Part shown: piece by piece, positions 6,404 to 62,922 of the stretch
Position numbering within the stretch: the first letter of the stretch is position 1
How the letters are laid out: the number at the start of each line of letters is the position of its first letter
Assembly (NCBI GenBank): GCA_947054455.1
Contig: CAMRWN010000001.1
Location: 74,966 to 138,965, forward strand
Direction of reading: 5' to 3'
Length of the DNA stretch: 64,000 nucleotides
From: an uncultured Alphaproteobacteria bacterium
GTDB taxonomy: Bacteria; Pseudomonadota; Alphaproteobacteria; Rs-D84
Position numbers and translations under genes: made by a program
Notes under the pieces: model-generated
What the model was told of the DNA's origin: nothing
The model's database searches: none
The model's input: the letters and a program-made list of their open reading frames with translations, nothing else

Positions 6404-6455
6404 AAAACTTTATCCAATGTTGCCACTTTCCCTATCTATCCCAGGTTCAGCAATC

Positions 6456-6667: not shown

Positions 6668-6677
6668 TTGTATAATC
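6668..6677 (+). promoter_or_regulatory. Extended -10 promoter element TTGTATAATC upstream of virB8
   Basis: A TGnTATAAT-type extended -10 lies ~78 nt upstream of the virB8 GTG start. It is related to, but not identical with, the TGTGATATAAT motif found elsewhere in the window. Confidence 0.4.
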
Positions 6678-6754
6678 TGTATTTTATGCACTTTTTGCTT
6701 GCGCATGTCCGCCGTTTTTTTCTACAATCGCATTATCACGAGGGGGAGAAAAAC

Positions 6755-7432: not shown

Positions 7433-7451
7433 CCACACCGAAACGGAAGGA

Positions 7452-8990: not shown

Positions 8991-9014
8991 ACCGACAAAC
9001 GCGGCGGATATGTT

Positions 9015-24750: not shown

Positions 24751-25256
24751 TTCTTGTGCCTCCGAACCTTGCGCATGACCATTTCGCGGCGCACCGGCGA
24801 CAGATGGTCTATGAATAAAACACCGTCCAGATGGTCTGCTTCGTGTTGTACGATGCGTGCAGCCAGACCGGACATTTCTGCGGCGCACGACGCGCCCGTT
24901 TCATCCGTCCATTCAACGCACACCGCTTGGGGACGTGAAACATTTGAAAACACCGGCAGATTATCCGGCCCCAGAACGGACAGGCAGCCCTCCTCCATTG
25001 TGCATACCTCGTCGCTCTTGGATACAATTTTCGGATTCAGCATTTTAAACACCTGGTCGGTGTCCGGATTCATCATGACCAGAAAACGCTGGGTTATGCC
25101 GACCTGGGGCGCGGCCAGGCCGACGCCGTTCTGTTCGCGCATCATCCCCACCATTTCATCCAGCACCGCCAGCAGCTGCGGCGTTATATCCGCAACCGGC
25201 GCACATTTTTCGCGCAGGGTCAAATCCCCGCAAAGTTTCATTTCCAAATTACTCAT
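24747..25256 (-). CDS. def: Peptide deformylase
   Basis: The three PDF motifs are present: GVGLAAPQVG, EGCLS and HEADHLDG. The start is placed at MSNLEMK; the track ORF extends further upstream. Confidence 0.9.
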   Translation of the reverse strand: MSNLEMKLCGDLTLREKCAPVADITPQLLAVLDEMVGMMREQNGVGLAAPQVGITQRFLVMMNPDTDQVFKMLNPKIVSKSDEVCTMEEGCLSVLGPDNLPVFSNVSRPQAVCVEWTDETGASCAAEMSGLAARIVQHEADHLDGVLFIDHLSPVRREMVMRKVRRHKK

Positions 25257-31350: not shown

Positions 31351-32671
31351 CCAACTTTTTTACAGATTCAGCCGACATCAAAATATTGTACTTGGCGTTC
31401 AACAGCGCCATGTCCAATTGATACAGGCCTGCCGAAACCTCGGCCAGTTCGATGGCCGACGTCTGGCCCGCGGCAAAACGTTCCTGAGAGAACTGGTACG
31501 CCTTGGCCGCCAGATTTCGCGCATTCTCCAGCGTCGCCAGATTGCCGCGCAAATGATTGTACTTCTTTATCGCCGTGTTGTATTCTTCTGTCTTCAGCTT
31601 TTTGGACTTGTCCAAATCCTGGCGTGCGGCCTCGGCGTCCATGGCGGAAACCGTGGCGTTCGCACGGTGCAGACCGCCGCTGAAAATCGGCATCTGCAAC
31701 GCCAGTCCCCACGACGCGGACTGCGAACCCTTTTTATCAAACATTCCGTCGAATTCGGAACCCATCGCATAATAATTGTAAGACGCGGTCGCCGCCAGTG
31801 TCGGCAGATATTCCGCACGCGACGACTTCGCTTTGGATTCGTACATGCTGACCTGCTGGGCCAGGATTTCCCATTCCGGATTGTTCTTCAGTTTTCCCGC
31901 ATCCAACGCCGAAAACTTGGTGGGGAAATTATCGGTCAGAACGATTTCCTCGTCCATGTCGATGCCCGCCAAAATCTTCAGCATGCGGTACGCCGTGTCG
32001 CGGTTGAATTCCGCATCGGACAAATTTATTTCCTTGCTGGCGATATCGGATTCGATTTTCACCAGATTGCTGCGCGACGCGCGGCCGGCCGCCCCCAGGT
32101 TGCGACGTGCGCTTTTCGCCGCCTGCAGGTCGGAACGTGCAATCTTTACTATATCATCGGTCATTTTGGCCGTCCAATACAGGTCGACCGCGCTGTATTT
32201 AACCTCGCGGCGGGTCAGCTCGCGGCTGGCCTCGGACATCTTTATTGCGGACTTTACGCTTTTGACCGCATTGCCTATCTTGCCAAATGTGTAAATTGGC
32301 TGGGACACGCTGACGCCGGCCATAAATATGTTGTCCGGTATTTCAATATACACAGACTGGTTCTTCAACGATTCCGAAATCAGTCCCCCGAACGCAGGCG
32401 GCAGCTCTATGCCCTTGGACTTGGACGGATCTTCTACGTTGACCATGTTCATATACGACGCCGTACCCTTGATATTGAACCAGCGGTTTGCATTCGCCGC
32501 ATCCAACTGGGCCTGGGCTTTTTGCACGTTGGCCTCGGCCTTTTTCAAGTCCTGGGATTCATGCATGATTTTTTCAACCGCGCCGTTCAGCGACAAATCC
32601 ATACACATCGCGTTGCCGCACAAACACGCAACACCGGCCCCTATGACAATCGCCGGTCTGATTTTAATCAT
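31343..32671 (-). CDS. tolC: TolC-family outer membrane efflux protein
   Basis: A 442-aa ORF with a signal peptide and two tandem repeats of the OEP/TolC coiled-coil pattern. Confidence 0.85.
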   Translation of the reverse strand: MIKIRPAIVIGAGVACLCGNAMCMDLSLNGAVEKIMHESQDLKKAEANVQKAQAQLDAANANRWFNIKGTASYMNMVNVEDPSKSKGIELPPAFGGLISESLKNQSVYIEIPDNIFMAGVSVSQPIYTFGKIGNAVKSVKSAIKMSEASRELTRREVKYSAVDLYWTAKMTDDIVKIARSDLQAAKSARRNLGAAGRASRSNLVKIESDIASKEINLSDAEFNRDTAYRMLKILAGIDMDEEIVLTDNFPTKFSALDAGKLKNNPEWEILAQQVSMYESKAKSSRAEYLPTLAATASYNYYAMGSEFDGMFDKKGSQSASWGLALQMPIFSGGLHRANATVSAMDAEAARQDLDKSKKLKTEEYNTAIKKYNHLRGNLATLENARNLAAKAYQFSQERFAAGQTSAIELAEVSAGLYQLDMALLNAKYNILMSAESVKKLGE

Positions 32672-33113
32672 TATTCAACTCCATCTTTGTTAAAACATTG
32701 TTCATTGTCTTCAGCGCGCCGGTCAGAACCTCTTCATCCTCGCGGCTGATGTTTTCGAACATGTGCGCAATGTCTTCACGGAACACCTCCATCGCCTGGC
32801 GGGCTATTTCCTCGCCTGCGGGCGTGCAGGAATACCATGTATTGCGACGGTCGTGTTCGTCAACGGTACGCGCGACCATTCCGTCCTGTTCCAGTTTGCG
32901 GAACGTGGCGCACAAATTCGGCGCCGGAACCATTTCGCGGCGTGCGATATCTTTTAGACGGGCACGCCCCCCAATGCTCAGCCGCACCAAAACCATCAGT
33001 TGGTTGCGCGGATATCCGGTACGGATATGCGGTGCGCGCTTTAACCGGTCAGCCAGTCTGTCTAAAATCAAGATATTTGATTCAAACAAACGAATAAATT
33101 CCTTGCGGGCCAT
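32664..33113 (-). CDS. MarR-family transcriptional regulator
   Basis: A 149-aa ORF with a winged-helix motif (RLKDIARREMVPAPNLCATFRKLEQDGMVAR). It is the first gene of the efflux operon. Confidence 0.85.
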   Translation of the reverse strand: MARKEFIRLFESNILILDRLADRLKRAPHIRTGYPRNQLMVLVRLSIGGRARLKDIARREMVPAPNLCATFRKLEQDGMVARTVDEHDRRNTWYSCTPAGEEIARQAMEVFREDIAHMFENISREDEEVLTGALKTMNNVLTKMELNND

Positions 33114-33257
33114 ATTTTATCCTTTATAATAACATCGTTCGGCCTTTAATAATTAAAAACCTGAATTATTATATTTTTTAACAAATTAATTGCAAGCACA
33201 AAATTAAAAAAATTTCAAAAATCTTTGCCTGAATATTGAAAAAAGCATTTTTTGTTA

Positions 33258-33285
33258 TTGCAAAAGCCGTAAAGTTCTTTATAAT
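33258..33285 (+). promoter_or_regulatory. Sigma70-type promoter for tRNA-Gln (TTGCAA-N16-TATAAT)
   Basis: The -35 TTGCAA lies at 33258-33263 and the -10 TATAAT at 33280-33285. The tRNA 5' end is 12 nt downstream. Confidence 0.55.
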
Positions 33286-33297
33286 CTGTGATGCCTT

Positions 33298-33371
33298 TGG
33301 GGTGTCGTCTAATGGTAGGACAAGAGATTTTGGTTCTCTTTATCATGGTTCGAATCCGTGCGCCCCAACCA
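33298..33371 (+). tRNA. trnQ: tRNA-Gln (anticodon UUG)
   Basis: The sequence is TGGGGTGTCGTCTAATGGTAGGACAAGAGATTTTGGTTCTCTTTATCATGGTTCGAATCCGTGCGCCCCAACCA. It has a 7-bp acceptor stem, anticodon loop ATTTTGG(T), a GGTTCGAATCC T-arm and an encoded CCA. Confidence 0.85.
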
Positions 33372-33383
33372 GTTTCAAAACAA

Positions 33384-33410
33384 ATGCCCCAGACGGGGCA
33401 TTTATTTTGA
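33384..33410 (+). terminator. Rho-independent terminator after tRNA-Gln
   Basis: The hairpin aaatgcccc-agac-ggggcattt is followed by a T-run. Confidence 0.65.
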
Positions 33411-33636
33411 AATGATGTATCGCGCGGATTGTAATCGTCCGTTTCACACGATTACAGCAAAACGTTATTAACGTTTTGTACGCGTTTTGTTCCAAAACGC
33501 TAGTGGGGCCATCCCCACACCCCTGTGTGCGCCCCAACCAGGATAAACAAAGTCAGCACACAGGCGACTTTTTCTTTGGTTTTCCAGTGTTTGATTTCGG
33601 AAAATAGCAATTTTTTTGAACTTTCGAACTTTTTTA

Positions 33637-33645
33637 TGATAAAAT
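33637..33645 (+). promoter_or_regulatory. Extended -10 element TGATAAAAT placed 9 nt upstream of the protease ATG (leaderless-type architecture)
   Basis: TATGATAAAAT-gcacatgaa-ATG. No -35 match. The architecture parallels the TGTGATATAAT promoters found elsewhere in the window. Confidence 0.4.
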
Positions 33646-33654
33646 GCACATGAA

Positions 33655-34581
33655 ATGCGTAAGATATTTGTATTTTTATCATGTTTAATAACAGCGCCAG
33701 CGATTGCGGCTGATGATGCCTGCACAAAGCCGAAAGAGTTCACAGTCGATAAACGTTGCTATGTTACCAGTGCACAAAAAAAACAAAAGCCATTTAATGC
33801 AACAGTCGGCTTAGTTAATGGTGATTTAAAAGCATACTGTACGGGCACAATCGTGAAGGGATACTACGGATATAACGGCGATAAAGCAACCACACAAGAA
33901 AAAGAAACCATATATGTTTATACTGCCAAACATTGCACCGACCGCAACAAAGACGGCAAACCCGACACTTATCTGGATATAGTATTACAAAATGGCGACA
34001 GTTATAAAATTAAATTTGCACGTGCTGGTCAATACAAGATTCTGTCAGACGAAAAAGCTGCAGGCGACTATGCATTATATACTATAGATGAGCAAACTGA
34101 CATTCCAGGCAGCAAAATACCATATACAACAATAAGCGACAAATGGGGGTTCCTGGGACTCAGACAACTGGATGCACGTGTTGTTGGATATGGCACATTA
34201 AAGATTATGTCCGACAAAGAAATAAAAATATTCAAAAGCAAATATATTAATTTTATGAAACAACAAGGTATGTCTGCCAAGGATTCTGGTGTAAAGATAA
34301 GCACGAAGTGGGGTACAAAATTTATGCAAAACTTAGATCATGACTACCAGAACGATTTATTCGCCAACCATAGCTTGAAAGTTTCAAATTGTAAATACCA
34401 CAGTGTCGGCACACAAATAGGCTGTCAAGCATGGAGCGGTAATTCTGGGGGTGGCATATTTGATAATAATGGCGAACTGATGGGAATTTATACCAGAGGG
34501 CATCGTATCGTAGGCGGGGAAAATCATGCAGCCTCAATTACCACAACAAAATACCCATCAACAATTCCTATCGCATTTTAA
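33655..34581 (+). CDS. Secreted trypsin-like (S1/chymotrypsin-fold) serine peptidase, island-encoded
   Basis: It has a signal peptide (FVFLSCLITAPAIAADD) and a His motif (YTAKHC). An Asp lies in DYALYTID, and the Ser motif GNSGGG is a variant of GDSGGP. The gene is AT-rich relative to the window. Confidence 0.65.
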   Translation: MRKIFVFLSCLITAPAIAADDACTKPKEFTVDKRCYVTSAQKKQKPFNATVGLVNGDLKAYCTGTIVKGYYGYNGDKATTQEKETIYVYTAKHCTDRNKDGKPDTYLDIVLQNGDSYKIKFARAGQYKILSDEKAAGDYALYTIDEQTDIPGSKIPYTTISDKWGFLGLRQLDARVVGYGTLKIMSDKEIKIFKSKYINFMKQQGMSAKDSGVKISTKWGTKFMQNLDHDYQNDLFANHSLKVSNCKYHSVGTQIGCQAWSGNSGGGIFDNNGELMGIYTRGHRIVGGENHAASITTTKYPSTIPIAF

Positions 34582-34601
34582 CAAAATTTAAGGAGCGCAC
34601 A

Positions 34602-34955
34602 ATGAAACAAAAAACAGATAAGATAAAAAACTTGAAACGCGCTGGTACGATAATTGCAATCGCGGGCAGTTTGGCACTGGGTAGCGTGTCAATTTCACGC
34701 ACCACCAAAGACGACTCCACAGATCCTACAGAAAACAAGGAATATATTAAACACTTGGAACATGTTGCGGATGAAATGACACATGAGCAAAAACTGCAAT
34801 TTATTCACGATGGAAAAGAAGTATTGAATAATCTGCAACAGAAAATTGATTCTGATGAAACCAATCCCGAAGAACGCTTTGAGGCATTAAGATCAAAACG
34901 TTTGGTTAATAAGGAAATTGAAGTAATGCAGAAAAAGTTGAATAACGGAAGATAG
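34602..34955 (+). CDS. Hypothetical small secreted or membrane-anchored protein (117 aa)
   Basis: A good RBS (AAGGAG) lies 7 nt before the ATG. The N-terminal hydrophobic segment is TIIAIAGSLALGSVSIS. The gene is AT-rich and followed by a terminator hairpin at ~34984..35010. Confidence 0.5.
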   Translation: MKQKTDKIKNLKRAGTIIAIAGSLALGSVSISRTTKDDSTDPTENKEYIKHLEHVADEMTHEQKLQFIHDGKEVLNNLQQKIDSDETNPEERFEALRSKRLVNKEIEVMQKKLNNGR

Positions 34956-35029
34956 ATATCGGCAGAATATTCTACTAATACAAAGTCGCATCTAATGGTG
35001 CGATTTTTATATTCAGATTGCATACGAGC

Positions 35030-35974
35030 TCAAAACGCTTCTTCGCAACGGTGGGTTTCTTTAATAATCTTGTTTATCTTGGTCAAACTCGCAATATTAA
35101 ATCCGGTTGAAACACCACTCAGCACAGTTGTCGCACCCGCCATCACATTCGCGGTTGTATTCAGGTTCTTTTCCTTCTTTTTGCCAGATTCTGAATTATC
35201 ATTACGAATGCCCGATGAATTTGCCACGGCACTGTTTACTGTGCCGGTTGCACCGGTAACGCCCCCCGCAATACTTGTTCCCATGACAACAGTTTGCTGT
35301 TTTTCAAATTTTTCTATTTCTGTGGCGTCAATGTTTCCACACCATGTTTTTATATTATCAAGTTTCCGAACAATTGGATTTTCCATAGGATTCAGCCCGC
35401 CTACATCCGCATTTTTGACCGATGCAACCGCGTTATTACATGCAGTTATCTGCTGTATTAAATCAGACTGATTATGATTGACACCCGACACAATCGCAGA
35501 CGTAATATTTGTTGCCGTTGCACCCGCCATCAGGCCCGTACGCCAATTTCCCATTCTTTTTGAACGTTTTTCCGCATCCACCAATTGCTGTTGCAATTCG
35601 GCAATTTCAGACATCGGCAGTATAACACTGTTAAAGAAAGTATCCGGGCTCATTTGCGCCACCGTATCGGGATTACACCCGCCGGCATCACAAATCTGCT
35701 TTTCCAAGCGTTCTATTTCTTTATCTATCTGAGCCTTGGATAATCCTGCATATAATGCACCACCAGCCGCAACGGCACCAACACCGGACACAACCGTGCC
35801 TGCCGTCGTCATATTTTTCAAATGTTGCAATTCATCGGATATACCACTACAAACAGCGCTTGTTGCATTATAAAGTTGTGTAAGTTGTAAAATTCTGTCC
35901 GCATCATCTGCATGCGCTGATGTATTAAGCGTCAACACCGCAACCATAAACAAGAACAAATAACCGGATTTCAT
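35030..35974 (-). CDS. Hypothetical secreted protein (314 aa) with Gly/Ala/Thr-rich segments and scattered Cys
   Basis: It has a signal peptide (MKSGYLFLFMVAVLTLNTSAHA). The ATG lies 9 nt from a TGTGATATAAT extended -10. The gene sits in the AT-rich island. Confidence 0.6.
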   Translation of the reverse strand: MKSGYLFLFMVAVLTLNTSAHADDADRILQLTQLYNATSAVCSGISDELQHLKNMTTAGTVVSGVGAVAAGGALYAGLSKAQIDKEIERLEKQICDAGGCNPDTVAQMSPDTFFNSVILPMSEIAELQQQLVDAEKRSKRMGNWRTGLMAGATATNITSAIVSGVNHNQSDLIQQITACNNAVASVKNADVGGLNPMENPIVRKLDNIKTWCGNIDATEIEKFEKQQTVVMGTSIAGGVTGATGTVNSAVANSSGIRNDNSESGKKKEKNLNTTANVMAGATTVLSGVSTGFNIASLTKINKIIKETHRCEEAF

Positions 35975-35982
35975 GATGATGA

Positions 35983-35995
35983 ATTATATCACAAC
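35983..35995 (-). promoter_or_regulatory. TTGTGATATAATT extended -10 promoter motif; 9 nt separate TATAAT from the ATG of the 35030..35974 gene
   Basis: This is an exact copy of the 11-mer TGTGATATAAT, read on the minus strand. Confidence 0.55.
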
Positions 35996-36295
35996 ATCTA
36001 AATACAATCTATAATAAATAACATAGGTTAGCTGTTGTCCTATGTTTTTAATATATCTATAACTTGCTCGATTTCCGGTGCCATTTTTATCAAATCATTA
36101 TAATAATTAGTTCAAAGATTGTTTATCACGCACAACCAAAAACACCCCGCGGGGTGTTTTTATTTATTTACACTTTCGAGCTGCGTGGTTGTGGTCGGCC
36201 AGCATGATGCATTGATTTTTATTTAGCAGAAACTATATATATGGTATAATTTATTGGATATTTGATTTTATTGTAAAAATAACAGAGTAGCGCTT

Positions 36296-36913
36296 ATGAC
36301 AAAAGATAGTTTTTACCAAGGGATCAAACAGATAGAACTACATAAATTTTATCATGGTTCCGCAACAAAAATCAAAGGCGATTTTTTACAACCCAGAGAA
36401 CAATTTAATAGCATTCAAAACGAACGTGTAGTCGGAGCATTTGTCACATCCGACATAAAGCACGCTAAGTTTTTTGCGATTTGGAAATGTTTAACTGGTG
36501 GTGGCCAAACACAACAAGATGTAAAAAAAGGGACAAAAAGAATTTTTTTTGAAAAATTGTCTGATAATATAAAACCAGAGTTCAATTTGTATACAGTATA
36601 CGAAGCGCCCGACACAAAATTTATTCACGACAAAGGCACAGAATATTATTCGCCTGCACCAATAAAAATCTCAGAACACCAAATATGCAATACTGTTGAA
36701 GAAATAGAAAAATTAGGATATGAAATTTATGTATTAAACGAACCATTAAAAAACAAACCCGACAAACAAACTAATAACAATCAAGCTGTCCAATCTGAAA
36801 TGCATCAAGCAATTGAAAATGGAGCGTATCATCGTGTTGATATTGCAAACTTAATTGAACAACAGAAATCAAAAAACATATTTTATAAACTATTTAATTG
36901 GCAAAAAGATTAA
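36296..36913 (+). CDS. Hypothetical protein (205 aa), island-encoded, with no signal peptide
   Basis: An AT-rich ORF preceded by a TGGTATAAT extended -10 at ~36245. A terminator hairpin (aaaccgcc-aatct-gggcggttt) lies at ~36952-36975. Confidence 0.5.
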   Translation: MTKDSFYQGIKQIELHKFYHGSATKIKGDFLQPREQFNSIQNERVVGAFVTSDIKHAKFFAIWKCLTGGGQTQQDVKKGTKRIFFEKLSDNIKPEFNLYTVYEAPDTKFIHDKGTEYYSPAPIKISEHQICNTVEEIEKLGYEIYVLNEPLKNKPDKQTNNNQAVQSEMHQAIENGAYHRVDIANLIEQQKSKNIFYKLFNWQKD

Positions 36914-37098
36914 ACTGTTCGCATCACGCTGACAGACCACAACCAAGATAAACAAAACCGCCAATCTGGGCGGTTTAATATTGGTATTGGGCCACGGGTT
37001 CGCAATCGCGACAAATGTCGCCGGTTCGACTATGAGTTGGCGTTTGGCGCATGAGCGCGGCGAACGCCATACGAATGCCCCGCAGGCGCAAATGGGTA

Positions 37099-37701
37099 CT
37101 AAAGCTCCCGCTGGCGATTGCGACGTATTGTTTCCTTTATTTCCGCGCGGCGGATTTGCACGCTGTATATCAAATCCAATACATGCCGCCCATGACAGCG
37201 ACGCCCCAGAACACGGCTGTAATATCTCCGGGACAAAACAGGCGCATCATTGCTGCCCAAAACCTGGTATGCGGCCGCATCCAAAGACGATGCAAATGTT
37301 CCTTCATCCATATTAATTTCGTAAACAAAGTCCGGACTTAAAACAGCACGCGACGCAACCGCGGTCGTATCCGCACGCATGCCGGCGTCTTTTTTGCGCA
37401 TGCGCTGTTCCAATTTTTTATTTTTCGCAACCAATTCATTGTACAACGCGTTCAGCCGCACCGTGTCATGCGCCAGCATTCCTATCAGCGACGCGTCCGC
37501 AACAGGACAATGAGACGTATCACGCATATGGCGCGCGGCATAGTTATAGTGCAGCCATACCGGCCCCATATAGGCCACAAATTTATGGACTGGTTCCTCT
37601 TCCCAGACCTGGATATAAATTCTTTGGCTGCATGCGGTCGCCATCAGTGTCATCGACGCCAAGGATGCCTTTAGAACCGCATTTTTTATCTTGTTTTCCA
37701 T
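37099..37701 (-). CDS. Hypothetical lipoprotein (200 aa)
   Basis: The N-terminal signal ends in the lipobox LMATAC. No family recognised. Confidence 0.5.
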   Translation of the reverse strand: MENKIKNAVLKASLASMTLMATACSQRIYIQVWEEEPVHKFVAYMGPVWLHYNYAARHMRDTSHCPVADASLIGMLAHDTVRLNALYNELVAKNKKLEQRMRKKDAGMRADTTAVASRAVLSPDFVYEINMDEGTFASSLDAAAYQVLGSNDAPVLSRRYYSRVLGRRCHGRHVLDLIYSVQIRRAEIKETIRRNRQREL

Positions 37702-37837
37702 TTGTTTAAATTCCGGATATGCATAATTTCATAGTTATTCCTGTAAACATAACCACAAATCAGCAAAAATGCAATATGACGATTTTAAAAAAAATTTGAT
37801 GACAAAAATCAAAACAATGTTATTATAGGGTACGTCC

Positions 37838-37912
37838 GCTCCCATCGTCTAGCGGTTAGGACATCAGATTCTCATTCTGACGACACGGGTTCGAGTCCCG
37901 TTGGGAGTGCCA
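37838..37912 (+). tRNA. trnE: tRNA-Glu (anticodon CUC)
   Basis: The sequence is GCTCCCATCGTCTAGCGGTTAGGACATCAGATTCTCATTCTGACGACACGGGTTCGAGTCCCGTTGGGAGTGCCA. It folds as a cloverleaf with anticodon loop TTCTCAT (CTC), a GGTTCGAGTCC T-arm, a G1-U72 wobble in the acceptor stem and a 3' CCA. A terminator hairpin follows (gcccc-aaa-gggc, T-run). Confidence 0.75.
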
Positions 37913-37965
37913 AGATAAAAAAATTGCCCCAAAGGGCATTTTTTTTACGCCAAACTACCCACTAA

Positions 37966-38700
37966 TCAATTTTTATCCCCGTAATACAGACGCTTGTATT
38001 CACGGTGCACGACGTTCATCAGTTCGCGGCGGGGCGTGCGCTGTTCGGCGGAAAAGACGTATGAAAAATCGCCGTACATATTGTCTTCCCAATCTATAAA
38101 GGTGGTGATTTCCATTGTTTCTGGATTCACCAAAAAATTGTCGCATATATCACCCTGGAACCATCCGTACATAAATCCGGGCGCACCCGCGTCGGCCGGT
38201 TTCAAATCGCGCAATTGGGCCGGATCCCGACGCGCGATTTCATGGATAAAAACCGCAATCTGACGCGCCAGCGTATCAATATTGGCCAACACATCTTCGG
38301 TCGACAACTGACGCAGCGTGCATCCGCGAATAAATTCATACTTGCGAACAATGTGTCCGTCATAGTCCAGCAGCTCCACCCCCGGTATCGGTATTGGCGA
38401 GACGGCATGAAACACATCGACAACACGCTTTTCACGCAGCGCAAGTTCGCGCGAATTGTCCCGGCGCAGCGGAAACTTGTATATATATTCGTCGTTAACG
38501 CCTATAATCAGATTGCGCGTCTGCTGACCGACGAACATCTTGACCCGGCGCAGCGGCTGCTTCAAATCTTTTTTAATAAACTTTATATGCCGTATTGTCG
38601 GCGAATTCAATACCGCACGCAGCGTTTTGCGCCGATGCTTGTTATAAACCAGCGCACAAATAATATTCGTAAAAAAACGCCTGATTTTTGAGCTTTCCAT
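37966..38700 (-). CDS. Phosphotransferase/kinase-like protein (aminoglycoside phosphotransferase/choline kinase fold)
   Basis: A 244-aa ORF with a Brenner-like motif (QGDICDNFLV) and a downstream IDWED motif resembling the APH catalytic and Mg-binding loops. Confidence 0.5.
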   Translation of the reverse strand: MESSKIRRFFTNIICALVYNKHRRKTLRAVLNSPTIRHIKFIKKDLKQPLRRVKMFVGQQTRNLIIGVNDEYIYKFPLRRDNSRELALREKRVVDVFHAVSPIPIPGVELLDYDGHIVRKYEFIRGCTLRQLSTEDVLANIDTLARQIAVFIHEIARRDPAQLRDLKPADAGAPGFMYGWFQGDICDNFLVNPETMEITTFIDWEDNMYGDFSYVFSAEQRTPRRELMNVVHREYKRLYYGDKN

Positions 38701-39108: not shown

Positions 39109-41862
39109 TTATTGTTGCGCGTCCGTACCGGCATCAGTGTCGATGACGGCTTCTTCTTCGGCGCTGTCGTCTTTTTCAATCGAAATGGCAGAGACAACCT
39201 TTTCGTTTTCCGCCGTGCGGAACAGCGTCACACCCGCCGTCGCGCGGCCCGCGATGCGAACATCGGACACCGGCGTGCGAATTATCTTCCCGCCGTCAGT
39301 TACCATTATTATGTCATGGTCGTCGGATACCGGGAACGAACCGGCGACAGCCGTGTTCTTGCCACCCAGTTTTATATTCGCAAACCCGCCGCCGCCGCGA
39401 TGCGTGATTCGATATTCATAGGAACTGGTGCGCTTGCCGAATCCGTTTTCCGAAATGGTCAGGATAAATTCTTCGGCCGCGGCCATTTCGGCCATCTTGG
39501 CGTCGTCCAGAATCATGTTTGTCGTCTCTTCATCGGCGTCGCCGGCATCTTCCTCTATTCCGGTGGCGGCGCGGCGTGCGGCACGCGACTGACGTATATA
39601 TGCGGCGCGGACGGCGGAATCAGCCTCGCCGTGGTTCAGCATGGCCATGCCGATGATGCGGTCGTCGGCCCCCAGTGTCATTCCGCGCACGCCGGTCGAA
39701 TTGCGGCCTGCGAACACGCGGATTTCCGGAACGGGGAATCTGATGCAGCGGCCGCGGTACGTCGCCAGAAATACATCCTGGTCTTCGGTACACGGCAGAA
39801 CTGAAATCAGGCTGTCGCCCTCGTCCAGTTTCATCGCGATTTTACCGTTGGCACGGATTGAATCAAAATCGGACATGCGGTTGCGGCGAACTGTTCCGGA
39901 CGCGGTTGCGAACATCAGGAAATGTTCCTTGCCGGATTCGCGCGCGCGTTGCACGTCCTCGTCGGCGACGGGCAGAATCGCGGTTATTGTCTCGCCGTTT
40001 TCCAACGGCAACAGATTGACCAACGGGCGCCCCTTGGCCGCGGCGGCCGCCTCTGGCAGCTTATAGGTCTTGAGTTTATAGCATATTCCCTTGGAACTGA
40101 AGAACAGCAGCGGTGTATGCGTGTTTGCGACAAACACCTGAACCACATAATCGTCGTCCTTGGTCGCCATGGCATTGCGTCCCTTGCCGCCGCGTTTTTG
40201 CGCACGGTAAGTATCCAGCGCCACGCGCTTGATATACCCGGTGTTCGACACGGTTATAACCATGTCCTCGCGGGCGATTAAATCTTCGATATCAATATCG
40301 ATTTCGGCATCGGATATGTCCGTGCGGCGCGGCTGGGCCCAGTTGTCGCGCACAGCCGTGGTTTCGTCGCGGATGATTTGGACAATGCGTTCATGACTGC
40401 CCAGAATTTCCAACAAATCCTTAATCTGCGCACCCAACCCGGTCAGGTCGTCGTGAATCTTGTCGCGTTCCAGCCCGGTCAAACGGTGCAGCTGCAGTTC
40501 CAGAATCGCGCGCGCCTGGTCTTCGGACATGCGGAACATTCCGTCCTTGTATTCGGTATTCGGGTCGTCAATCAGCTGAATATAATATTCAATGTCAGAC
40601 GCGGCCCATGTGCGCGCAACCAACGCGTTGCGTGCCGCCTCTGGATTTTCACTGGATTTTATCAGTTCTATAACCTCGTCCAGGTTGCCGACCGCCACCG
40701 ACAGCCCCAGCAAAGTATGCGCACGGTTGCGCGCCTTGTTCAGGTCGAATATCGTGCGACGGCGAATAACCTCTGTCCGGAATTCAACGAACGCGTCCAA
40801 AACACCGCGGATATTAAACAGCATCGGCCGGCCACGGTTCAGCGCCATCATATTAACCGGGAAATTCGTCTGCATTTCCGTGTATTGGAACAAATGGTTC
40901 AATACCACGTCCGCAATTGCGTCGCGCTTTAGTTCAATAACGATGCGCAATCCTTCCTTTGACGACTCGTCTCGGATTTCGGATATTCCTTCGATGCGCT
41001 TGTCCTTTATCAGTTCGGCGATTTTGATAATCATCTGCGCCTTGTTCACCTGATACGGTATTTCATCAACGATAATCGCCTGATGGTCGCGAAATTCCTC
41101 GATATGGGTCTTGGCGCGAACAATAATCGAACCGCGGCCTGTGGTGTGCGCCTTGTATGCGCCGGCGCGCCCCATTATGACCGCCCCCGTCGGGAAATCC
41201 GGCCCCGGGATAATCGTAAACAATTCGTCGTCGGTTATCTGCGCGTTGTCCAGCACGGCCAGGATGCCGTTGCAAACCTCGCCCAGGTTATAGGTCGGGA
41301 CGTTTGTCGCCATACCGACGGCAATACCGCTGCCGCCGTTGACCAGGAAATTCGGGAACTTGGTCGGCAAAACCACAGGTTCGGACAGCGTGCCGTCGAA
41401 ATTCGGCATCCAGTCAACGGTGTCCTTTTCCATATCGTCCATCAACGACGCCCCCAGTTTGGACAACCGCGCCTCTGTATAACGCATGGCGGCGGGTTTG
41501 TCGCCGTCGCGTGAACCGAAGTTTCCCTGCCCCTGAACCAGCATTTCGCCCATGGAAAAATCCTGGGCCATACGGGCCATCGCCTCGTATATAGAACTGT
41601 CGCCGTGCGGATGATACTTACCCATAACATCACCGACGATACGCGCGGATTTAACGGTCGCCTTGGTTGCGGGCGCCACGTCGTTCATGACGTAGAGAAT
41701 GCGGCGATGCACGGGCTTGCACCCGTCGCGCACATCGGGCAGCGCACGGTCAACGATAACCGACATCGCGTAATCCAAAAAGCTGGTCCGCATTTCGTGT
41801 TCCAGGGAAGACTGCGGAATTTTTATTTCGTTTGTTTCATTAACATTGTTGATTTCGGACAT
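39109..41862 (-). CDS. gyrA: DNA gyrase subunit A
   Basis: The GyrA N-terminus is present ([31 protein letters not shown]; active-site region ..AMRYTEARL..), with C-terminal beta-pinwheel repeats. The start is placed at MSEINNV (41862); the track ORF begins 20 codons upstream. Confidence 0.9.
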
Positions 41863-41944
41863 ACTTAACCTTTCCCTATTTTTAACATGCAAAATATAGC
41901 AAATATTTCGGCTTTTGGTCAAGAAATAAACCCCAAATTTTAGA

Positions 41945-41973
41945 TTGACAAAACCACGATTTGTGGTATTATT
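41945..41973 (+). promoter_or_regulatory. Near-consensus sigma70 promoter (TTGACA-N17-ATTATT/TATTAT)
   Basis: The sequence ttgaca-aaaccacgatttgtggt-attatt lies upstream of the small ORF at 42001. Its spacer contains a 5-bp inverted repeat (accac...gtggt). Confidence 0.5.
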
Positions 41974-42000
41974 ATTTTGTTTAAACCAAGGTATAAAAAC

Positions 42001-42186
42001 ATGAGTGTTATAAAGTCGGCAATTCAGGATAACCTGAAAAACGTGGAAGAAACAATATCTGACCCGAAAACAAACGGTCTGCAGCGTACCCAGCTGTATG
42101 GAATGCAGATGAACATGTTATGCATGCTGGCCATTACAGAGGCGGTTGAAAAAATAATCGCAAAATGCCGCGGCCGTCAAAAATAA
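42001..42186 (+). CDS. Hypothetical small protein (61 aa from MSVIK; 69 aa from the upstream Met)
   Basis: An ORF downstream of a strong promoter and upstream of rpmH. No family recognised. Confidence 0.35.
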
Positions 42187-42358
42187 AGGCAAACAGCACA
42201 ATGAACATATTTTTACCGGCATACAGATTTTTTATAGCGATTTTTGTCTACTACCTGATGCTGGAGGCATTAAAAAAGCTTGGACTGATAAAATCCAAAT
42301 AAAAAGGTTGCTTTTTTATAAAACGTATGCTTAAATATGCGCACAAAAGGATTTAGTT

Positions 42359-42511
42359 ATGGCAACAAAACGTACTTATCAACCTTCTAAAACGCGCCGC
42401 GTGCGTACGCACGGGTTCCGTGAAAGAATGTCAACCAAGGGCGGACGCGAGGTTTTGAACCGTCGTCGCGCGTGCGGTCGCAAAAGATTGGCGGCAACTG
42501 CTGCAAATTAA
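42359..42511 (+). CDS. rpmH: 50S ribosomal protein L34 (50 aa, below the ORF-track cutoff)
   Basis: Manual translation gives [50 protein letters not shown], the canonical L34 sequence. An RBS AAAGGA lies 8 nt upstream. The terminator hairpin aaaatcccccgattgggggatttttatttt follows at 42511-42545. Confidence 0.9.
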
Positions 42512-42611
42512 AAAATCCCCCGATTGGGGGATTTTTATTTTTCCAAAAATCAATAAGTGCCGCCTTTACCCCGCAACAATTAACTGTTAAGGCATTGATT
42601 CCATGCAGTGG

Positions 42612-42624
42612 TTGTGATATAATC
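42612..42624 (+). promoter_or_regulatory. TTGTGATATAATC extended -10 promoter motif upstream of the secreted repeat-protein operon
   Basis: An exact TGTGATATAAT 11-mer, 56 nt upstream of the ATG at 42680. Confidence 0.5.
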
Positions 42625-42679
42625 AAACGTAAAAATTATATTCGCAATTTGGATTTTATGATAAGGGGGAAATTTTTCA

Positions 42680-42954
42680 TGAAGCATCGATTGCTGCCGA
42701 TAGTTTTTACGGCTCAATGCTTTATATTATCTATGCCGTCTTTTGGTGCCACACCAAACGAACAGGTGGCATCTGCGGCATATGTCGACAACCGCGTCAA
42801 CGAAATGGAAAGCCGCACCGTCAACAAGGACGAATTCAAAACATTTTCCGACGAACTGCCCAATCGCTTTGTCGACACCACCGAAAATCAGACAATTTCC
42901 GGTGTAAAAACTTATACGTCTTCCCCGATTGTTCCGACGCCGCCGCTGCCGTAA
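42680..42954 (+). CDS. Small secreted hypothetical protein (91 aa), first gene of a two-gene operon
   Basis: A strong RBS (AAGGGGGA) lies 7 nt before the ATG. It has a signal peptide (MKHRLLPIVFTAQCFILSMPSFGA). Its stop overlaps the next gene's start (TAATG). Confidence 0.6.
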
Positions 42955-44231
42955 TGATAAAACGTCTGCTGATTCTTTTTTGCATATTGTTCGCACCCGC
43001 CGCCCGGTCGGCGGAAATGGTCAGCGTCGAATACATTCACAACGCCATCGAACAACGCTGCGGCATCGTCGTGCCGTACAATCCCGCGCTGGGCAACAAG
43101 AAAGTCGCCGCAAATATGAAATATCTGCTGACGGCGATTGACCGGGCGAACGAAATACAAAACAACCGGGCCGTTTCACACTACGGCGACAATTCGACAT
43201 TTGCAACAATGGCGGCCGCCGACACGGTCGCGACAAATGACGCGATTGACCGCCTGATAAAGATGCCGTTTACCATCACCACAACGCCCGATACAACCGT
43301 GTTCAACTTTGACCTGTCCGCGCGCGGAACATTTGCGGTCAACTGGGGCGACGGCACGTTCCAAACAATCCAGCGCGATAATACAGAATTACAAACATAT
43401 TCCCACACATACGCCAAGGCCGGCAAATATAAAATCGGAATTGCCGGAACGGCAACAGGATATAGCATTGCGGACGACACCCCAAACACAACCGCGGCAA
43501 TACATTTTAGAAAGAACGAAAACATTGCGGAAATTCATGGCTCGGTTGGGGCAATATTCGGCACCATCGGCGATGGCACGATTGCCGGAAATCAACCGAA
43601 TTTTCGCAACACATTCCGCGAATGCCCCAACCTGACCAGCGAAATTCCCGCCGAATTGTTCGACGGCGTTCATGGCGCGCCCGTTCCATGGATGTTTGCC
43701 GGAACTTTTGAAGCCACGCCGTTTTCTGGTTCCATACCTGAAAATTTGTTTTCCGGCATACAGGGCAGTCCGATATTCGCAATGTTTAACAACACATTCA
43801 AAGAAAGTAAGATTTCCGGCACGATACCCGCAAAACTGTTCAGCGGGATACACGGCGCGCCCGCGCCCTATATGTTCGCCGGCACATTTTACTGGGTGGA
43901 AAACTTGACCGGTAGCATCCCCGCAGGCATGTTTGCCGGAATTCGTGGTGAACCTGCAATATATATGTATCACGGCTTGTTTGTTAATTGTTCCGGTCTG
44001 ACCGGCCAGATTCCCGAAAATTTGTTTGGCGACATTTCCGGCCCCGCCGCCGAATTCATGTTTCGTTATACATTCCAAAACTGCAGCGGTCTGACCGGGC
44101 CGTCGGCGCGTATCAACGGCAAATATCTGTATGAAATATGGCCCGACGCGCCCGCCAACGCAACCCAGTTATGCTATAAAAGCGTAACAGGCTTATCCGA
44201 TTATGCCACGATACCGGCGGCATGGAAATAA
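42954..44231 (+). CDS. Secreted protein with ~6 tandem ~31-aa LRR-like repeats of pattern MF.GTF...L(T/S)G.IP..LF.GI.G.P (DUF285/BspA-like character)
   Basis: It has a signal peptide (MIKRLLILFCILFAPAARSA). Six repeats cover aa ~215-400, for example MFAGTFEATPFSGSIPENLFSGIQGSPIFA, MFNNTFKESKISGTIPAKLFSGIHGAPAPY and MFAGTFYWVENLTGSIPAGMFAGIRGEPAIY. The ORF is translationally coupled to the upstream small gene. Confidence 0.7.
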   Translation: MIKRLLILFCILFAPAARSAEMVSVEYIHNAIEQRCGIVVPYNPALGNKKVAANMKYLLTAIDRANEIQNNRAVSHYGDNSTFATMAAADTVATNDAIDRLIKMPFTITTTPDTTVFNFDLSARGTFAVNWGDGTFQTIQRDNTELQTYSHTYAKAGKYKIGIAGTATGYSIADDTPNTTAAIHFRKNENIAEIHGSVGAIFGTIGDGTIAGNQPNFRNTFRECPNLTSEIPAELFDGVHGAPVPWMFAGTFEATPFSGSIPENLFSGIQGSPIFAMFNNTFKESKISGTIPAKLFSGIHGAPAPYMFAGTFYWVENLTGSIPAGMFAGIRGEPAIYMYHGLFVNCSGLTGQIPENLFGDISGPAAEFMFRYTFQNCSGLTGPSARINGKYLYEIWPDAPANATQLCYKSVTGLSDYATIPAAWK

Positions 44232-62343: not shown

Positions 62344-62493
62344 ATACAACCCTTTTATCTTAAATGTAAATCCTATCAGATTAAAATCAAAATTCAAGCG
62401 TGCATATATAAAGTATCCGAATAAATACTTGACAAATTATATTTTATGTATTATATTTTCACACAGAAATATAAATACCAAAGGAATAACATA

Positions 62494-62883: not shown

Positions 62884-62922
62884 TAAATCAAAAATAAATG
62901 CGGCCAAACAGGCCGCATTTTT

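Follow-up and report, generated by a model that had tools for sequence, protein, structure and literature searches.

Results

The window analyzed here, a stretch of 64,000 nucleotides, comes from an uncultured gut alphaproteobacterium of the order Rs-D84 (PMC12306168), kin of Candidatus Enterousia. It contains an AT-rich block (33372-36980) that begins directly behind a tRNA-Gln(UUG) gene (33298..33371, plus strand; ARAGORN, Rfam tRNA 57.7 bits). The array described below is anchored at the last bases of this tRNA, ...GTGCGCCCCAACCA, and a tRNA-Glu(CUC) gene (37838..37912, plus strand; ARAGORN, Rfam) forms the far border of a variable interval. An earlier, sequence-only reading had placed both tRNA genes at exactly these positions and described four open reading frames in the block, all of which we recover. 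Loci used for comparison are labeled L plus a number (e.g., L081 from a conspecific strain, L092 from a related species).

The same reading had proposed that the block is AT-rich, and this is borne out by the composition. Its GC content is 38.3%, against 52.6 ± 1.8% for all other 3.6-kb windows (minimum 0.469; z = -7.8); the background is thus about 52-53% and not the ~60% assumed before. In 400-nt windows, GC ranges from 0.31 to 0.47 between about 33,000 and 36,980 and is back to 0.54 at 37,000. The tetranucleotide L1 distance amounts to 0.45-0.53 over 33,001-38,000, compared to a median of 0.22 for the whole window. The four block genes have GC3 values of 0.35 (protease), 0.36 (p117), 0.39 (p314) and 0.24 (p205), against 0.55-0.69 for the flanking genes (TolC, MarR, a 200-aa protein, APH-like, MerR and GyrA). 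We conclude that the block is real and foreign; it is a composite of at least three modules with conserved non-coding junction elements, not one island.

The modules are delimited by copies of the tRNA-Gln 3' end, although direct repeats of this end had been reported as absent. The exact 15-mer GTGCGCCCCAACCAG at the tRNA-Gln end (33358-33372) is found again at 33527-33541. The 20-mer CCCCAACCAGGATAAACAAA at 33532-33551 recurs as CCACAACCAAGATAAACAAA at 36937, with 18/20 matching positions and 0.02 such matches expected by chance. Short copies are also present at 36130-36138 (GCACAACCA) and at 36937-36945 (CCACAACCA), the latter with the displaced native tRNA terminator behind it. The overlap of the distal cores with tRNA-Gln is no more than 8-9 nt. 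The copies divide the block into Module 1 (33372-33540), Module 2 (33541-36138) and Module 3 (36139-36945). No repeat of the tRNA-Glu 3' end is present within the window.

Module 1 (plus strand) is an ORF-less, structured unit of 169 nt, designated type A, that ends in the exact tRNA 3'-end copy (33527-33540). It starts with the tRNA terminator hairpin (33373-33412), followed by four more hairpins within a closing stem. Type A units occur in 10 other species, and there only beside tRNA-Gln. In their alignment, 96.9% of cells are paired and 12 pairs show compensatory changes (RNAalifold, pair counts); none of 500 shuffles equals this pairing, and slid controls reach 38-55%. Module 1 has no match in Rfam. 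A second kind of structured unit, type B, also shows covariation. The type B census and the L081 sequence identify 36985..37090 (plus strand) as the 5' two-thirds of a truncated type B unit; in L081 the unit is complete, with GTGCGCCCCAACCA as its end and a lipocalin gene behind it. For the type A and B units, the repeat of the tRNA end may have a role at the RNA level instead of in recombination.

Module 2 opens with a leader (33541..33654, plus strand) composed of GGATAAACAAAG, a terminator-like hairpin, a CTTTCGAAC motif and a promoter-like site, TTGAAC-18-TGATAAAAT (33616-33645, promoter scan), which stops 9 nt short of the protease ATG. L082 and L083 have a homologous leader with the promoter at the matching position. 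The homology between the Module 2 versions of the window and L083 begins at ~33615 instead of at the core, and the initial 60 nt of the window leader are similar to the leader of the first cassette in L003. The Module 2 leaders are thus mosaic, as would fit homologous exchange in conserved linkers.

The first gene of Module 2 (33655..34581, plus strand) encodes a 308-aa secreted S1 serine protease of the V8/exfoliative-toxin-like kind. The earlier assignment as a trypsin-like protease with a signal peptide is upheld by Pfam, with Trypsin_2 at 30.0 bits (cutoff 27.6) and Trypsin at 25.2 bits (cutoff 20.6); the N-terminal signal-like sequence was called by eye. The catalytic triad H93, D138 and S264 (in TAKHC, GDYA and GNSGG) is invariant in 22 homologues. 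Sequence matches in the PDB are weak and comprise a staphylococcal-type serine protease and exfoliative toxin A (E 0.016-0.3). Next, p117 (34602..34955, plus strand; 117 aa) has an N-terminal hydrophobic anchor or signal and is charged and helical over the rest of its length. A family search with p117 gave no match; it is 98% identical in the conspecific L081, has a 35% homologue in the L040 hotspot and is missing from the L082 version of Module 2. A hairpin that the terminator scan scores as terminator-like on the minus strand (34986..35003) separates p117 from the convergent p314 gene.

p314 (35030..35974, minus strand) is a secreted, Cys-rich protein of 314 aa that is all-helical and has four hydrophobic segments rich in Gly and Ala. 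Its family counts at least 503 proteins, and the source names and contigs that we inspected all belong to uncultured gut (alpha)proteobacteria. The alignment shows seven invariant cysteines and the motifs GNWRTGL, NQSDLIQ and MGTSIAG. The AF2 model (pLDDT 62) is helical throughout, and a fold search with it returned no significant match. p314 genes adjoin trypsin-like genes in L082, L083 and L086. A putative extended -10 element, TGTGATATAAT (35983..35993, minus strand), precedes the p314 ATG by 8 nt, with identical motif and spacing in L085. The motif noted as a promoter in the earlier reading is in place, and judged from this spacing the transcript may be leaderless, as was suggested there, or carry a very short leader.

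The right end of Module 2 is a conserved non-coding element that we call element C (36020..36138, plus strand), with a hairpin CATAGG..CCTATG, an internal AAATCATTATAATAATTnGTTCnAAnATTG and the terminal GCACAACCA. The same end is present in L081, L042, L085, L003, L086, L011 and L092, sometimes with unrelated cargo, and it always directly precedes a different terminator or module; five different sequences follow it in the window, L081, L042, L003 and L085. The 2.6-kb Module 2 is found with the same ends in four species, without an integrase remnant. At the equivalent site of a relative with 38% GC, the protease/p314 module has 80% nucleotide identity and native composition, and the p314 and protease homologues in L086 and L082 have GC3 values of 0.36-0.39, the native value there. 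The native composition of Module 2 at the equivalent site of the 38%-GC relative suggests that the transfer was recent, with lower-GC relatives as its source.

Module 3, the p205 cassette (36139..36945, plus strand), consists of a terminator (36138-36161, plus strand; terminator scan), inverted repeats, a promoter-like site TTAGCA-16-TATAAT (36223-36250, plus strand; promoter scan) and the p205 gene. Its inverted repeat, I3, is 25 nt long and 88% complementary, with TGGTTGTGGTCGGCCAGCATGATGC as left arm (36186-36210) and GCATCACGCTGACAGACCACAACCA as right arm (36921-36945). L018, L056, L061, L066 and L072 share this terminal-inverted-repeat architecture, their inner arms co-varying, and L062 and L072 match the left end (36185-36251) at 90% identity, ahead of other cargo. 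p205 (36296..36913, plus strand; 205 aa) is a cytoplasmic alpha/beta protein with a conserved FYHGS...GD.L motif and 53 homologues from uncultured Alphaproteobacteria in varied genomic contexts. Searches against Pfam and PDB sequences gave no match. Its AF2 model (pLDDT 87.6, pTM 0.80) has Arr rifampin ADP-ribosyltransferases as best PDB fold matches (E 0.02-0.05, probability 0.82-0.90, TM 0.26-0.41), and hhalign against Arr-2 aligned the YHG motif alone. Going by the predicted model, p205 may have a distant ADP-ribosyltransferase-like fold.

At the distal junction (36937..36976, plus strand), CCACAACCA is followed by AGATAAACAAAACCGCCAATCTGGGCGGTTT, which represents displaced native tRNA-Gln downstream sequence with its terminator (hairpin 36955-36976, plus strand; terminator scan). 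The junction matches the tRNA-Gln 3' end and downstream sequence of L092 at 85%, and a similar sequence lies directly 3' of tRNA-Gln in L002, L003, L004 and L072. Farther on, a lineage-specific 200-aa protein with a hydrophobic, lipoprotein-like N-terminus (37099..37701, minus strand) lies within the variable interval but is not AT-rich (GC3 0.55, native composition). It is 95% identical in the conspecific L081, with no homologue among 80 related loci and no family match.

The variable region thus extends past the AT-rich block as far as tRNA-Glu. In 32 related species, tRNA-Gln and tRNA-Glu lie between 94 bp and 8.6 kb apart, and the 243 ORFs in between fall into 159 clusters, 117 of them singletons, so almost nothing is shared. 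The tRNA genes at the borders are near-invariant. MarR and TolC genes adjoin the site in 80/80 related loci, and all 65 loci in which the tRNA-Gln 3' end was detected have it in identical form. No fewer than 10 MAG contigs break off within a few hundred nucleotides of tRNA-Gln. Most relatives have accessory intervals here whose GC content is a few points lower than that of their own flanks. The nearest species (L092, L001-L010) do not have the block genes at the tRNA-Gln site. Conspecific strains differ as well: in L081 a lipocalin-gene segment takes the place of 36153-36970, between flanks with about 97% nucleotide identity.

The junctions recur throughout the clade. Junctions of the form CACAACCA|terminator were counted at least 16 times, in at least 12 species. 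Core-like matches in the Gln-Glu gaps are strongly biased toward the tRNA strand (60, versus 13 on the opposite strand), which also holds every exact copy. Duplicated units stand in tandem in L029 (three) and L043 (two). Module order is shuffled: the unit ahead of Module 2 is of type A in the window and of type B in L083, and the p205 cassette is preceded by Module 2 in the window but by a type B unit in L040.

Neither the island nor the 64-kb window encodes a recombinase, which agrees with the earlier remark that an integrase is absent. Across the 92 loci, recombinases of the serine type were detected in L005, L039 and L002 only, in a screen that covered serine recombinases and tyrosine recombinases, the latter with a single XerD query that divergent integrases would escape. 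In L005 and L039, the large-serine-recombinase elements adjoin ...CCAACCA. A search of IMG/VR with three junction patterns returned 0 matches, and neither an excised circle nor a phage or plasmid with attP turned up.

Discussion

In this study, we propose that the AT-rich block is a recent, foreign tandem stack of integrase-less modules, built up by site-specific recombination in trans at a clade-wide hotspot at the tRNA-Gln 3' end; we assign this reading a probability of roughly 60%. Each module starts with its own terminator and leader, and at its far end the 3' end of tRNA-Gln is repeated in short form (...C[C/A]CAACCA). Upon entry, the ...CAACCA site of the incoming DNA would recombine with the like sequence at the end of the tRNA or of a resident module. 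Newcomers would thereby displace earlier modules distally and tRNA-Gln would receive a new terminator from every incoming module. The recombinase would be encoded outside the window and work in trans, the sole candidate seen being a large serine recombinase like those adjoining the tRNA-Gln end in two relatives. The suspected horizontal acquisition at a tRNA gene is supported by the composition, the hypervariable site, the replacement of a module between strains and the natively composed homologue of a module in lower-GC relatives; the notion of a single island is not retained. Nor do we see any sign of the old age that had been considered, because GC3 is unameliorated, equaling that of homologues in low-GC hosts, and one module differs between strains with ~97% nucleotide-identical flanks.

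The strongest competitor, which we hold to be possible though rather unlikely, is an exchange of cassettes by homologous recombination, on the model of minimal mobile elements. DNA from relatives would be taken up and would take the place of the resident content by double crossovers in conserved linkers (type A/B units, terminator/TTCGAA leaders, element C), without site-specific recombinase. The identity of the tRNA-Gln 3' region in all 65 loci where it was found, the linkers that are 75-90% identical across species carrying different cargo, the mosaic Module 2 leaders and the failure to find a linked recombinase all speak for such a process, and the window itself holds a ComFC-like gene, RecR and RmuC. 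Crossovers would scatter, yet the junctions fall at one exact base after ...CAACCA in at least five neighbor contexts. Moreover, the tandem units of L029 and L043 and the 60 versus 13 strand bias fit better with a polar, site-specific process, and homologous exchange leaves the tRNA-end-like sequence at each module end unexplained.

A scenario in which one or a few larger, integrase-bearing elements (prophage, ICE/IME or large-serine-recombinase element) entered tRNA-Gln and then decayed to the present block through deletion of their mobility genes, with the repeats as old attL/attR scars, appears improbable to us. Att-like repeats, foreign GC and a tRNA border are classic traits of tRNA islands, and intact large-serine-recombinase elements occupy the equivalent site in L005 and L039. 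However, modules down to 169 nt recur in many species with ends and size kept, some of them in tandem, and the 2.6-kb Module 2 has the same ends in four species without integrase remnant. The block holds neither phage or conjugation genes nor a recombinase pseudogene, and its unameliorated composition together with a strain-polymorphic module leaves little time for extensive decay. A native region with low GC through local mutational or selective bias (secreted Lys/Asn-rich proteins, low expression) is strongly disfavored: accessory intervals are slightly below flank GC in most relatives and homologous gene families exist at the equivalent site in other species, but the GC3 gap of 0.2-0.4 is far beyond amino-acid bias, the nearest species lack these genes at the site, Module 2 is 80% nucleotide-identical to the copy of a 38%-GC organism whereas the flanking genes of the closest detected species reach only 74%, and conspecific strains differ in whether they carry the p205 cassette.

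Several known systems resemble the proposed array. The islands of Prochlorococcus are described as growing by serial integration at tRNA genes, so that partial tRNAs are dispersed through them (Hackl et al., bioRxiv 10.1101/2020.12.28.424599). These islands and their tycheposons share with our locus a small, streamlined genome, a fixed position beside a specific tRNA gene, newcomers that push older elements inward, scattered partial tRNA copies and strain-variable cargo. Tycheposons, however, carry their own site-specific integrase and replication genes, which no module here does. The present modules are also far smaller (0.17-2.6 kb), share 8-15 nt with the tRNA compared to about 40 nt, and include conserved, structured ORF-less units.

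Streptococcal CIMEs (cis-mobilizable elements), with their accretion at ICE attachment sites, resemble our modules as att-flanked elements without integrase or conjugation genes that stand in tandem at the 3' end of a tRNA or other gene, thought to be mobilized by the recombinase of a related element. CIMEs arise from ICEs by deletion, with few per site. Here, in contrast, many unrelated cargoes share few end sequences across dozens of species, and the putative helper is seen in other species only (L005, L039). Integron cassette arrays (attI/attC, IntI) are similar in being polar arrays of one- to three-gene cassettes at a single chromosomal site, delimited by short conserved cores that lie within structured sites or imperfect inverted repeats; both also show ORF-less cassettes, varying neighbors for one cassette and strain-dependent content. 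Unlike integrons, the array has MarR and TolC genes (80/80 loci) and no intI beside it, is anchored at a tRNA 3' end, has end elements unlike attC, and consists of cassettes with their own promoters and terminators in both orientations. In the minimal mobile elements of Neisseria, alternative cassettes between conserved genes lack mobility genes and are thought to be exchanged by transformation and homologous recombination. Alternative cassettes, conserved flanks and missing mobility genes are common to both, but tRNA-end repeats and junctions sharp at a specific short sequence set our locus apart.

With its H/D/S triad in TAKHC, GD and GNSGG and its secretion signal, the 308-aa protease is similar to peptidase family S1, subfamily S1B (V8/exfoliative toxins), yet its similarity to characterized members is very low (PDB E 0.016-0.3). 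It belongs to a clade-specific expansion, often with tandem paralogues beside p314. The cargo of the array probably comprises secreted or surface effectors, and its donors would be lower-GC members of Rs-D84 that hold Module 2 at the equivalent site with native composition.

Results

Composition and Layout of the Block

Stacked modules without an integrase make up the AT-rich block at 33372-36980. They occupy a tRNA-Gln hotspot shared across the clade, and their junctions are precise and recurrent. The positions that the sequence-only reading gave for tRNA-Gln(ttg) (33298-33371) and tRNA-Glu(ctc) (37838-37912) were confirmed, its open reading frames were found as described, and the TGTGATATAAT motif indeed lies 8 nt upstream of the start codon of p314. 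The GC content amounts to 0.31-0.47 in 400-nt windows from about 33,000 to 36,980 and is back to 0.54 at 37,000. As a whole, the block has a GC content of 0.383 against a mean of 0.526 for all other 3.6-kb windows (sd 0.018, minimum 0.469; z = -7.8). The tetranucleotide distance of 33,001-38,000 from the window average is about twice that of the median 2-kb window, and GC3 is 0.35 for the protease, 0.36 for p117, 0.39 for p314 and 0.24 for p205, with 0.55-0.69 in six flanking genes. The AT-rich deviation is thus borne out by GC, GC3 and tetranucleotide usage, albeit against a background of about 53% GC instead of about 60%. Two more AT-rich patches (GC 0.37-0.45), at 41,800-43,000 upstream of gyrA and at 62,000-63,000 near a DUF2147 gene, have no associated tRNA gene within the window.

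Direct repeats of the tRNA 3' end, initially reported as absent, do exist at 33527, 36130 and 36937. Positions 33527-33541 repeat without mismatch the final 14 nt of tRNA-Gln and the base after them (GTGCGCCCCAACCAG); by simple arithmetic, such a 15-mer would have a probability of about 1e-4 of occurring again in 64 kb. A second repeat pairs the 20-mer CCCCAACCAGGATAAACAAA at 33532 with CCACAACCAAGATAAACAAA at 36937 (0.02 matches expected), where the tRNA-end copy reads CCACAACCA, and a third copy is GCACAACCA at 36130-36138. Every copy in the block is directly followed by a hairpin and a T-run. Repeats of the 3' ends of tRNA-Glu and tRNA-Trp were sought in the window and none was found, indicating that the phenomenon is specific to tRNA-Gln here.

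Over 40 nt, the sequence AGATAAACAAAACCGCCAATCTGGGCGGTTT after the last copy is an 85% match to the stretch directly 3' of tRNA-Gln in L092 (TolC 83%), which ranks among the two closest of the relatives found, and it also resembles the sequence at that position in four other relatives (L002, L003, L004, L072). We infer that 36937-36976 represents the displaced native tRNA end with its terminator and, consequently, that all DNA between tRNA-Gln and 36937 has been inserted. The layout then comprises module M1 (33372-33540), module M2 with the protease, p117 and p314 (33541-36138), module M3 with p205 (36139-36945), a truncated further unit (36985-37090) and a lineage-specific gene of native composition (37099-37701). 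The latter encodes a 200-aa protein with a hydrophobic, lipoprotein-like N-terminus, for which homologues are present in none of the 80 related species and were found only in the conspecific contig L081.

The tRNA-Gln/tRNA-Glu Interval in Related Species

Via the TolC-like gene adjoining the block, 80 loci were recovered from 80 species of uncultured gut Alphaproteobacteria, many of them labelled Candidatus Enterousia. MarR-TolC and tRNA-Gln are conserved among these relatives and the sequence after tRNA-Gln is variable. In the 32 loci with both tRNAs, their spacing ranges from 94 bp (L075) to 8.6 kb, including near-empty sites of 94, 190, 259 and 283 bp (in L075, L004, L041 and L010). The 243 ORFs in the intervals fall into 159 clusters, 117 of which are singletons, and comprise autotransporters, Slam-type lipoprotein-assembly proteins, an ABC exporter, GNAT and HD enzymes, a cytosine methylase and small GIY-YIG proteins, besides many genes without annotation. 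In most species the interval lies a few points of GC under its flanks, the gap reaching 13-15 points in the window. Variable presence is therefore well-supported, both by the different interval content in 32 species and by the replacement of the p205 module in the conspecific strain.

The junctions themselves recur: at least 16 junctions of CACAACCA with a terminator were counted in at least 12 species. Core-like matches in the intervals number 60 on the tRNA strand and 13 on the opposite strand, every exact copy being located on the tRNA strand.

Several further observations concern this interval. In at least 10 contigs (L012, L017, L024, L025, L032, L054, L059, L069, L071, L074) the metagenome-assembled sequence ends 1-350 nt from tRNA-Gln, which is consistent with assembly breaks due to population or strain heterogeneity at the hotspot. 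Small genes with a GIY-YIG nuclease domain are located 100-400 nt after tRNA-Gln in L023, L030, L036, L037 and L044, and a conserved CACTTCGCGTCTGCGACGCTTCG... is present directly 3' of tRNA-Gln in the first three of these and in several other loci; both together may correspond to another kind of element using the tRNA-Gln site. In some species tRNA-Glu is inverted relative to tRNA-Gln (L004, L010, L079, L085), and in some (e.g., L028) an APH-like gene lies inside rather than outside the interval, implying that the far border of the hotspot has been rearranged repeatedly.

Cassettes with Cargo and Differences between Strains

M2 is also found at this site in a 38%-GC organism (contigs L082-L085), with 80% nucleotide and 80-81% protein identity in the p314 region and with the promoter, the protease start and the right end in common. 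This right end, element C (...AAATCATTATAATAATTnGTTCnAAnATTG...GCACAACCA; 36020-36138), is kept in the window, L081, L042, L003, L085, L086 and L011, and the sequence directly after its ...CAACCA differs each time, being M3, a type B unit, a type A unit, the leader of another cassette or a native-type terminator. Moreover, element C closes cassettes with unrelated cargo in L042, L003 and L092.

M3 is bordered by the 25-nt inverted repeats TGGTTGTGGTCGGCCAGCATGATGC and GCATCACGCTGACAGACCACAACCA. The same outer repeat, together with a co-varying inner repeat, is found in cassettes of L018, L056, L061, L066 and L072. In the loci sampled, the motif lies only on the hotspot side, and in the window it occurs only at this site; one apparent copy elsewhere proved to belong to the coding sequence of a conserved gene (...PDMVVVVSYG...).

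The conspecific strain (L081) shares 96.8-97.5% nucleotide identity with the window, and GyrA, MerR and APH are 98.8-99.2% identical in protein. It contains M2 and misses 36153-36970, i.e., p205. More distally there is a full-length type B unit with an exact GTGCGCCCCAACCA at its end, and next to it a gene for a 113-aa Lipocalin_3 protein. At least one module has thus been gained, lost or exchanged within the species.

Leaders of the cassettes carry an inverted GTTCGAAAG / CTTTCGAAC pair, 30-40 nt apart (window 33621-33629 and 36171-36179; L003, L062, L072, L083, L092, L042), whose second motif falls in the spacer of an outward promoter-like site. This arrangement looks like an operator for a DNA-binding protein. 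GGTTCGAA is also present within element C.

Structured Units without ORFs

In the window, and likewise in 24 of the 65 related loci, the first copy of the tRNA end is followed by a second at a distance of 155-170 nt, and the intervening ORF-less units can be stacked in tandem (of type B, three in L029 and two in L043). Type A units always adjoin tRNA-Gln (window 33372-33540; L009, L010, L015, L022, L037, L038, L042, L052, L061, L070), and their ends repeat the final 14 nt of tRNA-Gln exactly. Their predicted fold consists of a terminator hairpin and four hairpins within a closing stem, with 96.9% of cells paired and both-side changes in 12 pairs (35 cells), a result that none of 500 shuffles matches and for which slid controls give 38-55%. 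One 8-bp helix has six co-varying positions and zero broken pairs. Judging by conserved G-U pairs, the structure belongs to the tRNA-sense strand. Type B is represented by about 30 copies in L011-L083 and by the truncated copy at 36985-37090. It has T-loop-like GGTTCGA motifs, shows compensatory changes in 16 of 35 predicted pairs and starts with TGGTTnGnGGCCAC, an imperfect inverse of its tRNA-like 3' end. Neither type is matched by Rfam, with which just the two tRNAs score in 32500-38500 (E up to 1). Such units may act as small RNAs, as recombination sites formed by folded single strands, or as minimal cassettes. A bridge-RNA or IS110-like role was considered as well, a speculative reading to which no Rfam match lends support.

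Proteins Encoded by the Modules

The trypsin-like protease announced by the sequence-only reading has a signal-like N-terminus and passes the Pfam thresholds for Trypsin_2 (30.0 bits, cutoff 27.6) and Trypsin (25.2 bits, cutoff 20.6). With the triad H93/D138/S264 invariant in 22 sequences, profile and conserved His-Asp-Ser residues together predict this 308-aa protein to be a peptidase S1 of trypsin/chymotrypsin fold. It belongs to a clade-specific expansion whose members often adjoin p314, and this repeated linkage suggests a functional pair of secreted or envelope proteins. In p314, a signal sequence is accompanied by seven invariant cysteines and by four hydrophobic segments rich in Gly and Ala. 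Its model is all-helical but of low confidence (pLDDT 62), with zero significant fold matches. An alpha-helical pore-forming toxin of the ClyA/MakA/AhlB/XaxAB type is not supported, as this low-confidence model matched such toxins only at noise level (E 0.26-1.2, TM below 0.3).

In the case of p205, the model is confident (pLDDT 87.6) and the top two PDB fold matches are Arr ADP-ribosyltransferases, although weak (E 0.02-0.05, TM 0.26-0.41). A FYHGS..GD.L motif recalls Arr, yet an hhalign comparison aligned the FYHG motif alone, and by sequence p205 has no match in Pfam or PDB. Searching the PDB with profiles of p314 and p205 likewise gave either no match or no meaningful one. An Arr-type ADP-ribosyltransferase is consequently a model-based lead rather than an assignment. 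Four p205 homologues (P0149, P0150, P0152, P0156) are 350 aa long with two tandem YHGS-type domains.

Surroundings in the Window

Housekeeping genes of the window include those for NusG, LspA, KsgA, RecR, Fmt, Def, RmuC and GyrA, and VirB8-type and ComFC-like genes are present as well. Together with two large ORFs after it (512 and 789 aa), the VirB8-family gene occupies 6668-11384, beside tRNA-Trp and a mildly AT-rich patch at 6,000-7,000, and may belong to a type IV secretion gene cluster. The ComFC-like protein (double zinc ribbon and phosphoribosyltransferase; 62923-63669) and RmuC (25249-26469) are relevant to the capacity for DNA uptake and recombination. Two proteins, P0121 and P0174, are 100% identical to window proteins and sit on a 340-kb contig; exact look-ups for the protease, MarR and the 200-aa protein returned no match.

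Discussion

We estimate at roughly 0.9 the probability that the block is recently acquired DNA at a hotspot, and the horizontal-transfer reading holds. The composition of its homologues points to the source. In L086 (GC 0.42) the hotspot contains a p314 homologue followed by three trypsin-like paralogues with a GC3 of 0.36-0.39, the level of the native genes there (0.38-0.43), and the p314 copy of L082 has a GC3 of 0.39 in a 38%-GC contig. The window copies have retained 0.35-0.39, versus 0.55-0.69 for native genes. The nearest species found by flanking genes (TolC 83%, flanks 74% nucleotide identity) have no M2-type genes at the site. These data are most simply read as a recent transfer, with clade members of lower GC as the donors. 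The sequence-only reading had regarded the same genes with native composition in relatives as evidence against acquisition; such genes are indeed native in composition in the donors, but not in this host.

Entry of the modules is probably, though by no means certainly, due to site-specific recombination by a trans-acting enzyme. Recombination would occur at ...CAACCA, the 3' end of tRNA-Gln, as supported by the sharp and recurrent junction, the polarity, the tandem units, the displaced native end and the rule that a terminator for the tRNA comes with every module. Each event would push earlier content distally, as newcomers likewise do in the tRNA-linked islands of Prochlorococcus (bioRxiv 10.1101/2020.12.28.424599). 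A hypothetical M2 circle would join ...GCACAACCA to GGATAAACAAAG and an M3 circle ...CCACAACCA to AAAACACCCC, while a precise empty site would read, e.g., GTGCGCCCCAACCA directly followed by AGATAAACAAAACC. A perfect 9-bp inverted repeat (TTGTTTATC/GATAAACAA) surrounds the hypothetical M2 junction; since it is unique to the window, no weight is given to it here. In IMG/VR, the arm-plus-core sequences of types A and B and the end of element C had zero matches, neither an attP-bearing phage nor a circular form, and a metagenome scan for element C gave a single contig, L092, which was useful to define the native site and has no circular junction.

In line with the earlier remark that no integrase was seen, Pfam detects no recombinase domain in the four island proteins, and six-frame ORFs of the window yield no XerD-like or serine-recombinase match. 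Across the 92 loci the same screens, which covered XerD-like tyrosine recombinases and serine recombinases, retrieved serine recombinases only (L005, L039, L002); the lack of XerD-like matches refers to a single XerD query, which has limited sensitivity. The elements with a large serine recombinase in L005 and L039 abut ...CCAACCA, the CCA end of tRNA-Gln, exactly, which leaves this family as the sole observed candidate, acting in trans. The respective genes (with DUF2924, Resolvase and Recombinase domains) are located at L005:4316-6619 and L039:7042-9346, the latter being split into two ORFs. Homologous recombination in conserved linkers seems to contribute too, as suggested by the mosaic leaders after the core: 33541-33595 resembles the leader of L003, and homology to M2 of L083 begins only at about 33615.

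Of the known systems, islands that grow at a tRNA gene through serial integration come closest to the block, which also has traits of integrons and of CIMEs and carries the integrase of none of them. It shares with a classical tRNA-associated genomic island the deviant composition, the insertion at a tRNA 3' end with direct repeats and the variable presence, but an integrase or recombinase of its own was not found in the block. With respect to the attC sites of integrons (imperfect inverted repeats with a conserved core), the picture is mixed: cassette ends of the block are inverted-repeat or structured and have a conserved terminal core, but integron cassettes are mostly promoterless and in one orientation, and those of the block have their own promoter-like sites and terminators and both orientations. 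Tentatively, the locus might even be an undescribed integron-like cassette-capture system on the tRNA-Gln 3' end in Rs-D84, with shuffling at ...CAACCA by a recombinase unlinked to the array, a reading we regard as somewhat doubtful. The block would then consist of three such cassettes, the ORF-less ones would encode structured RNAs of about 170 nt or single-stranded DNA sites, and either these structured units or the terminal inverted repeats would possibly direct the recombinase. True integrons differ in that intI adjoins attI, whereas MarR and TolC adjoin tRNA-Gln in 80 of 80 loci. Tycheposons are defined by a site-specific tyrosine (or large serine) recombinase and hallmark replication genes, and the block has neither. 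The terminal inverted repeats of M3 could recall a MITE or DDE-transposon derivative, but there is no flanking duplication (GCTGCG versus AGATAA), and the repeat motif occurs at this site only in the window and on the hotspot side only in the other loci. A phage or defence-system reading is not supported, as the island proteins had weak protease matches at most in PHROGs, PADLOC and NCBIfam.

The gut bacteria of Enterousia and its order Rs-D84 are uncultured, and their genomes, of about 1 Mb or less, encode neither a TCA cycle nor a respiratory chain (PMC12306168). In genomes as reduced as these, the locus described here is one clade-wide swap site, where secreted proteases, secreted proteins of membrane-active appearance and other accessory genes are exchanged between species and strains. 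The junction signature is precise enough for direct testing in metagenomic reads. Once a trans-acting recombinase and a role for the structured 170-nt units were identified, the locus would represent a new site-specific cassette-capture system and provide a handle on the effector repertoire of these bacteria; otherwise, it would be a well-documented tRNA-linked island.
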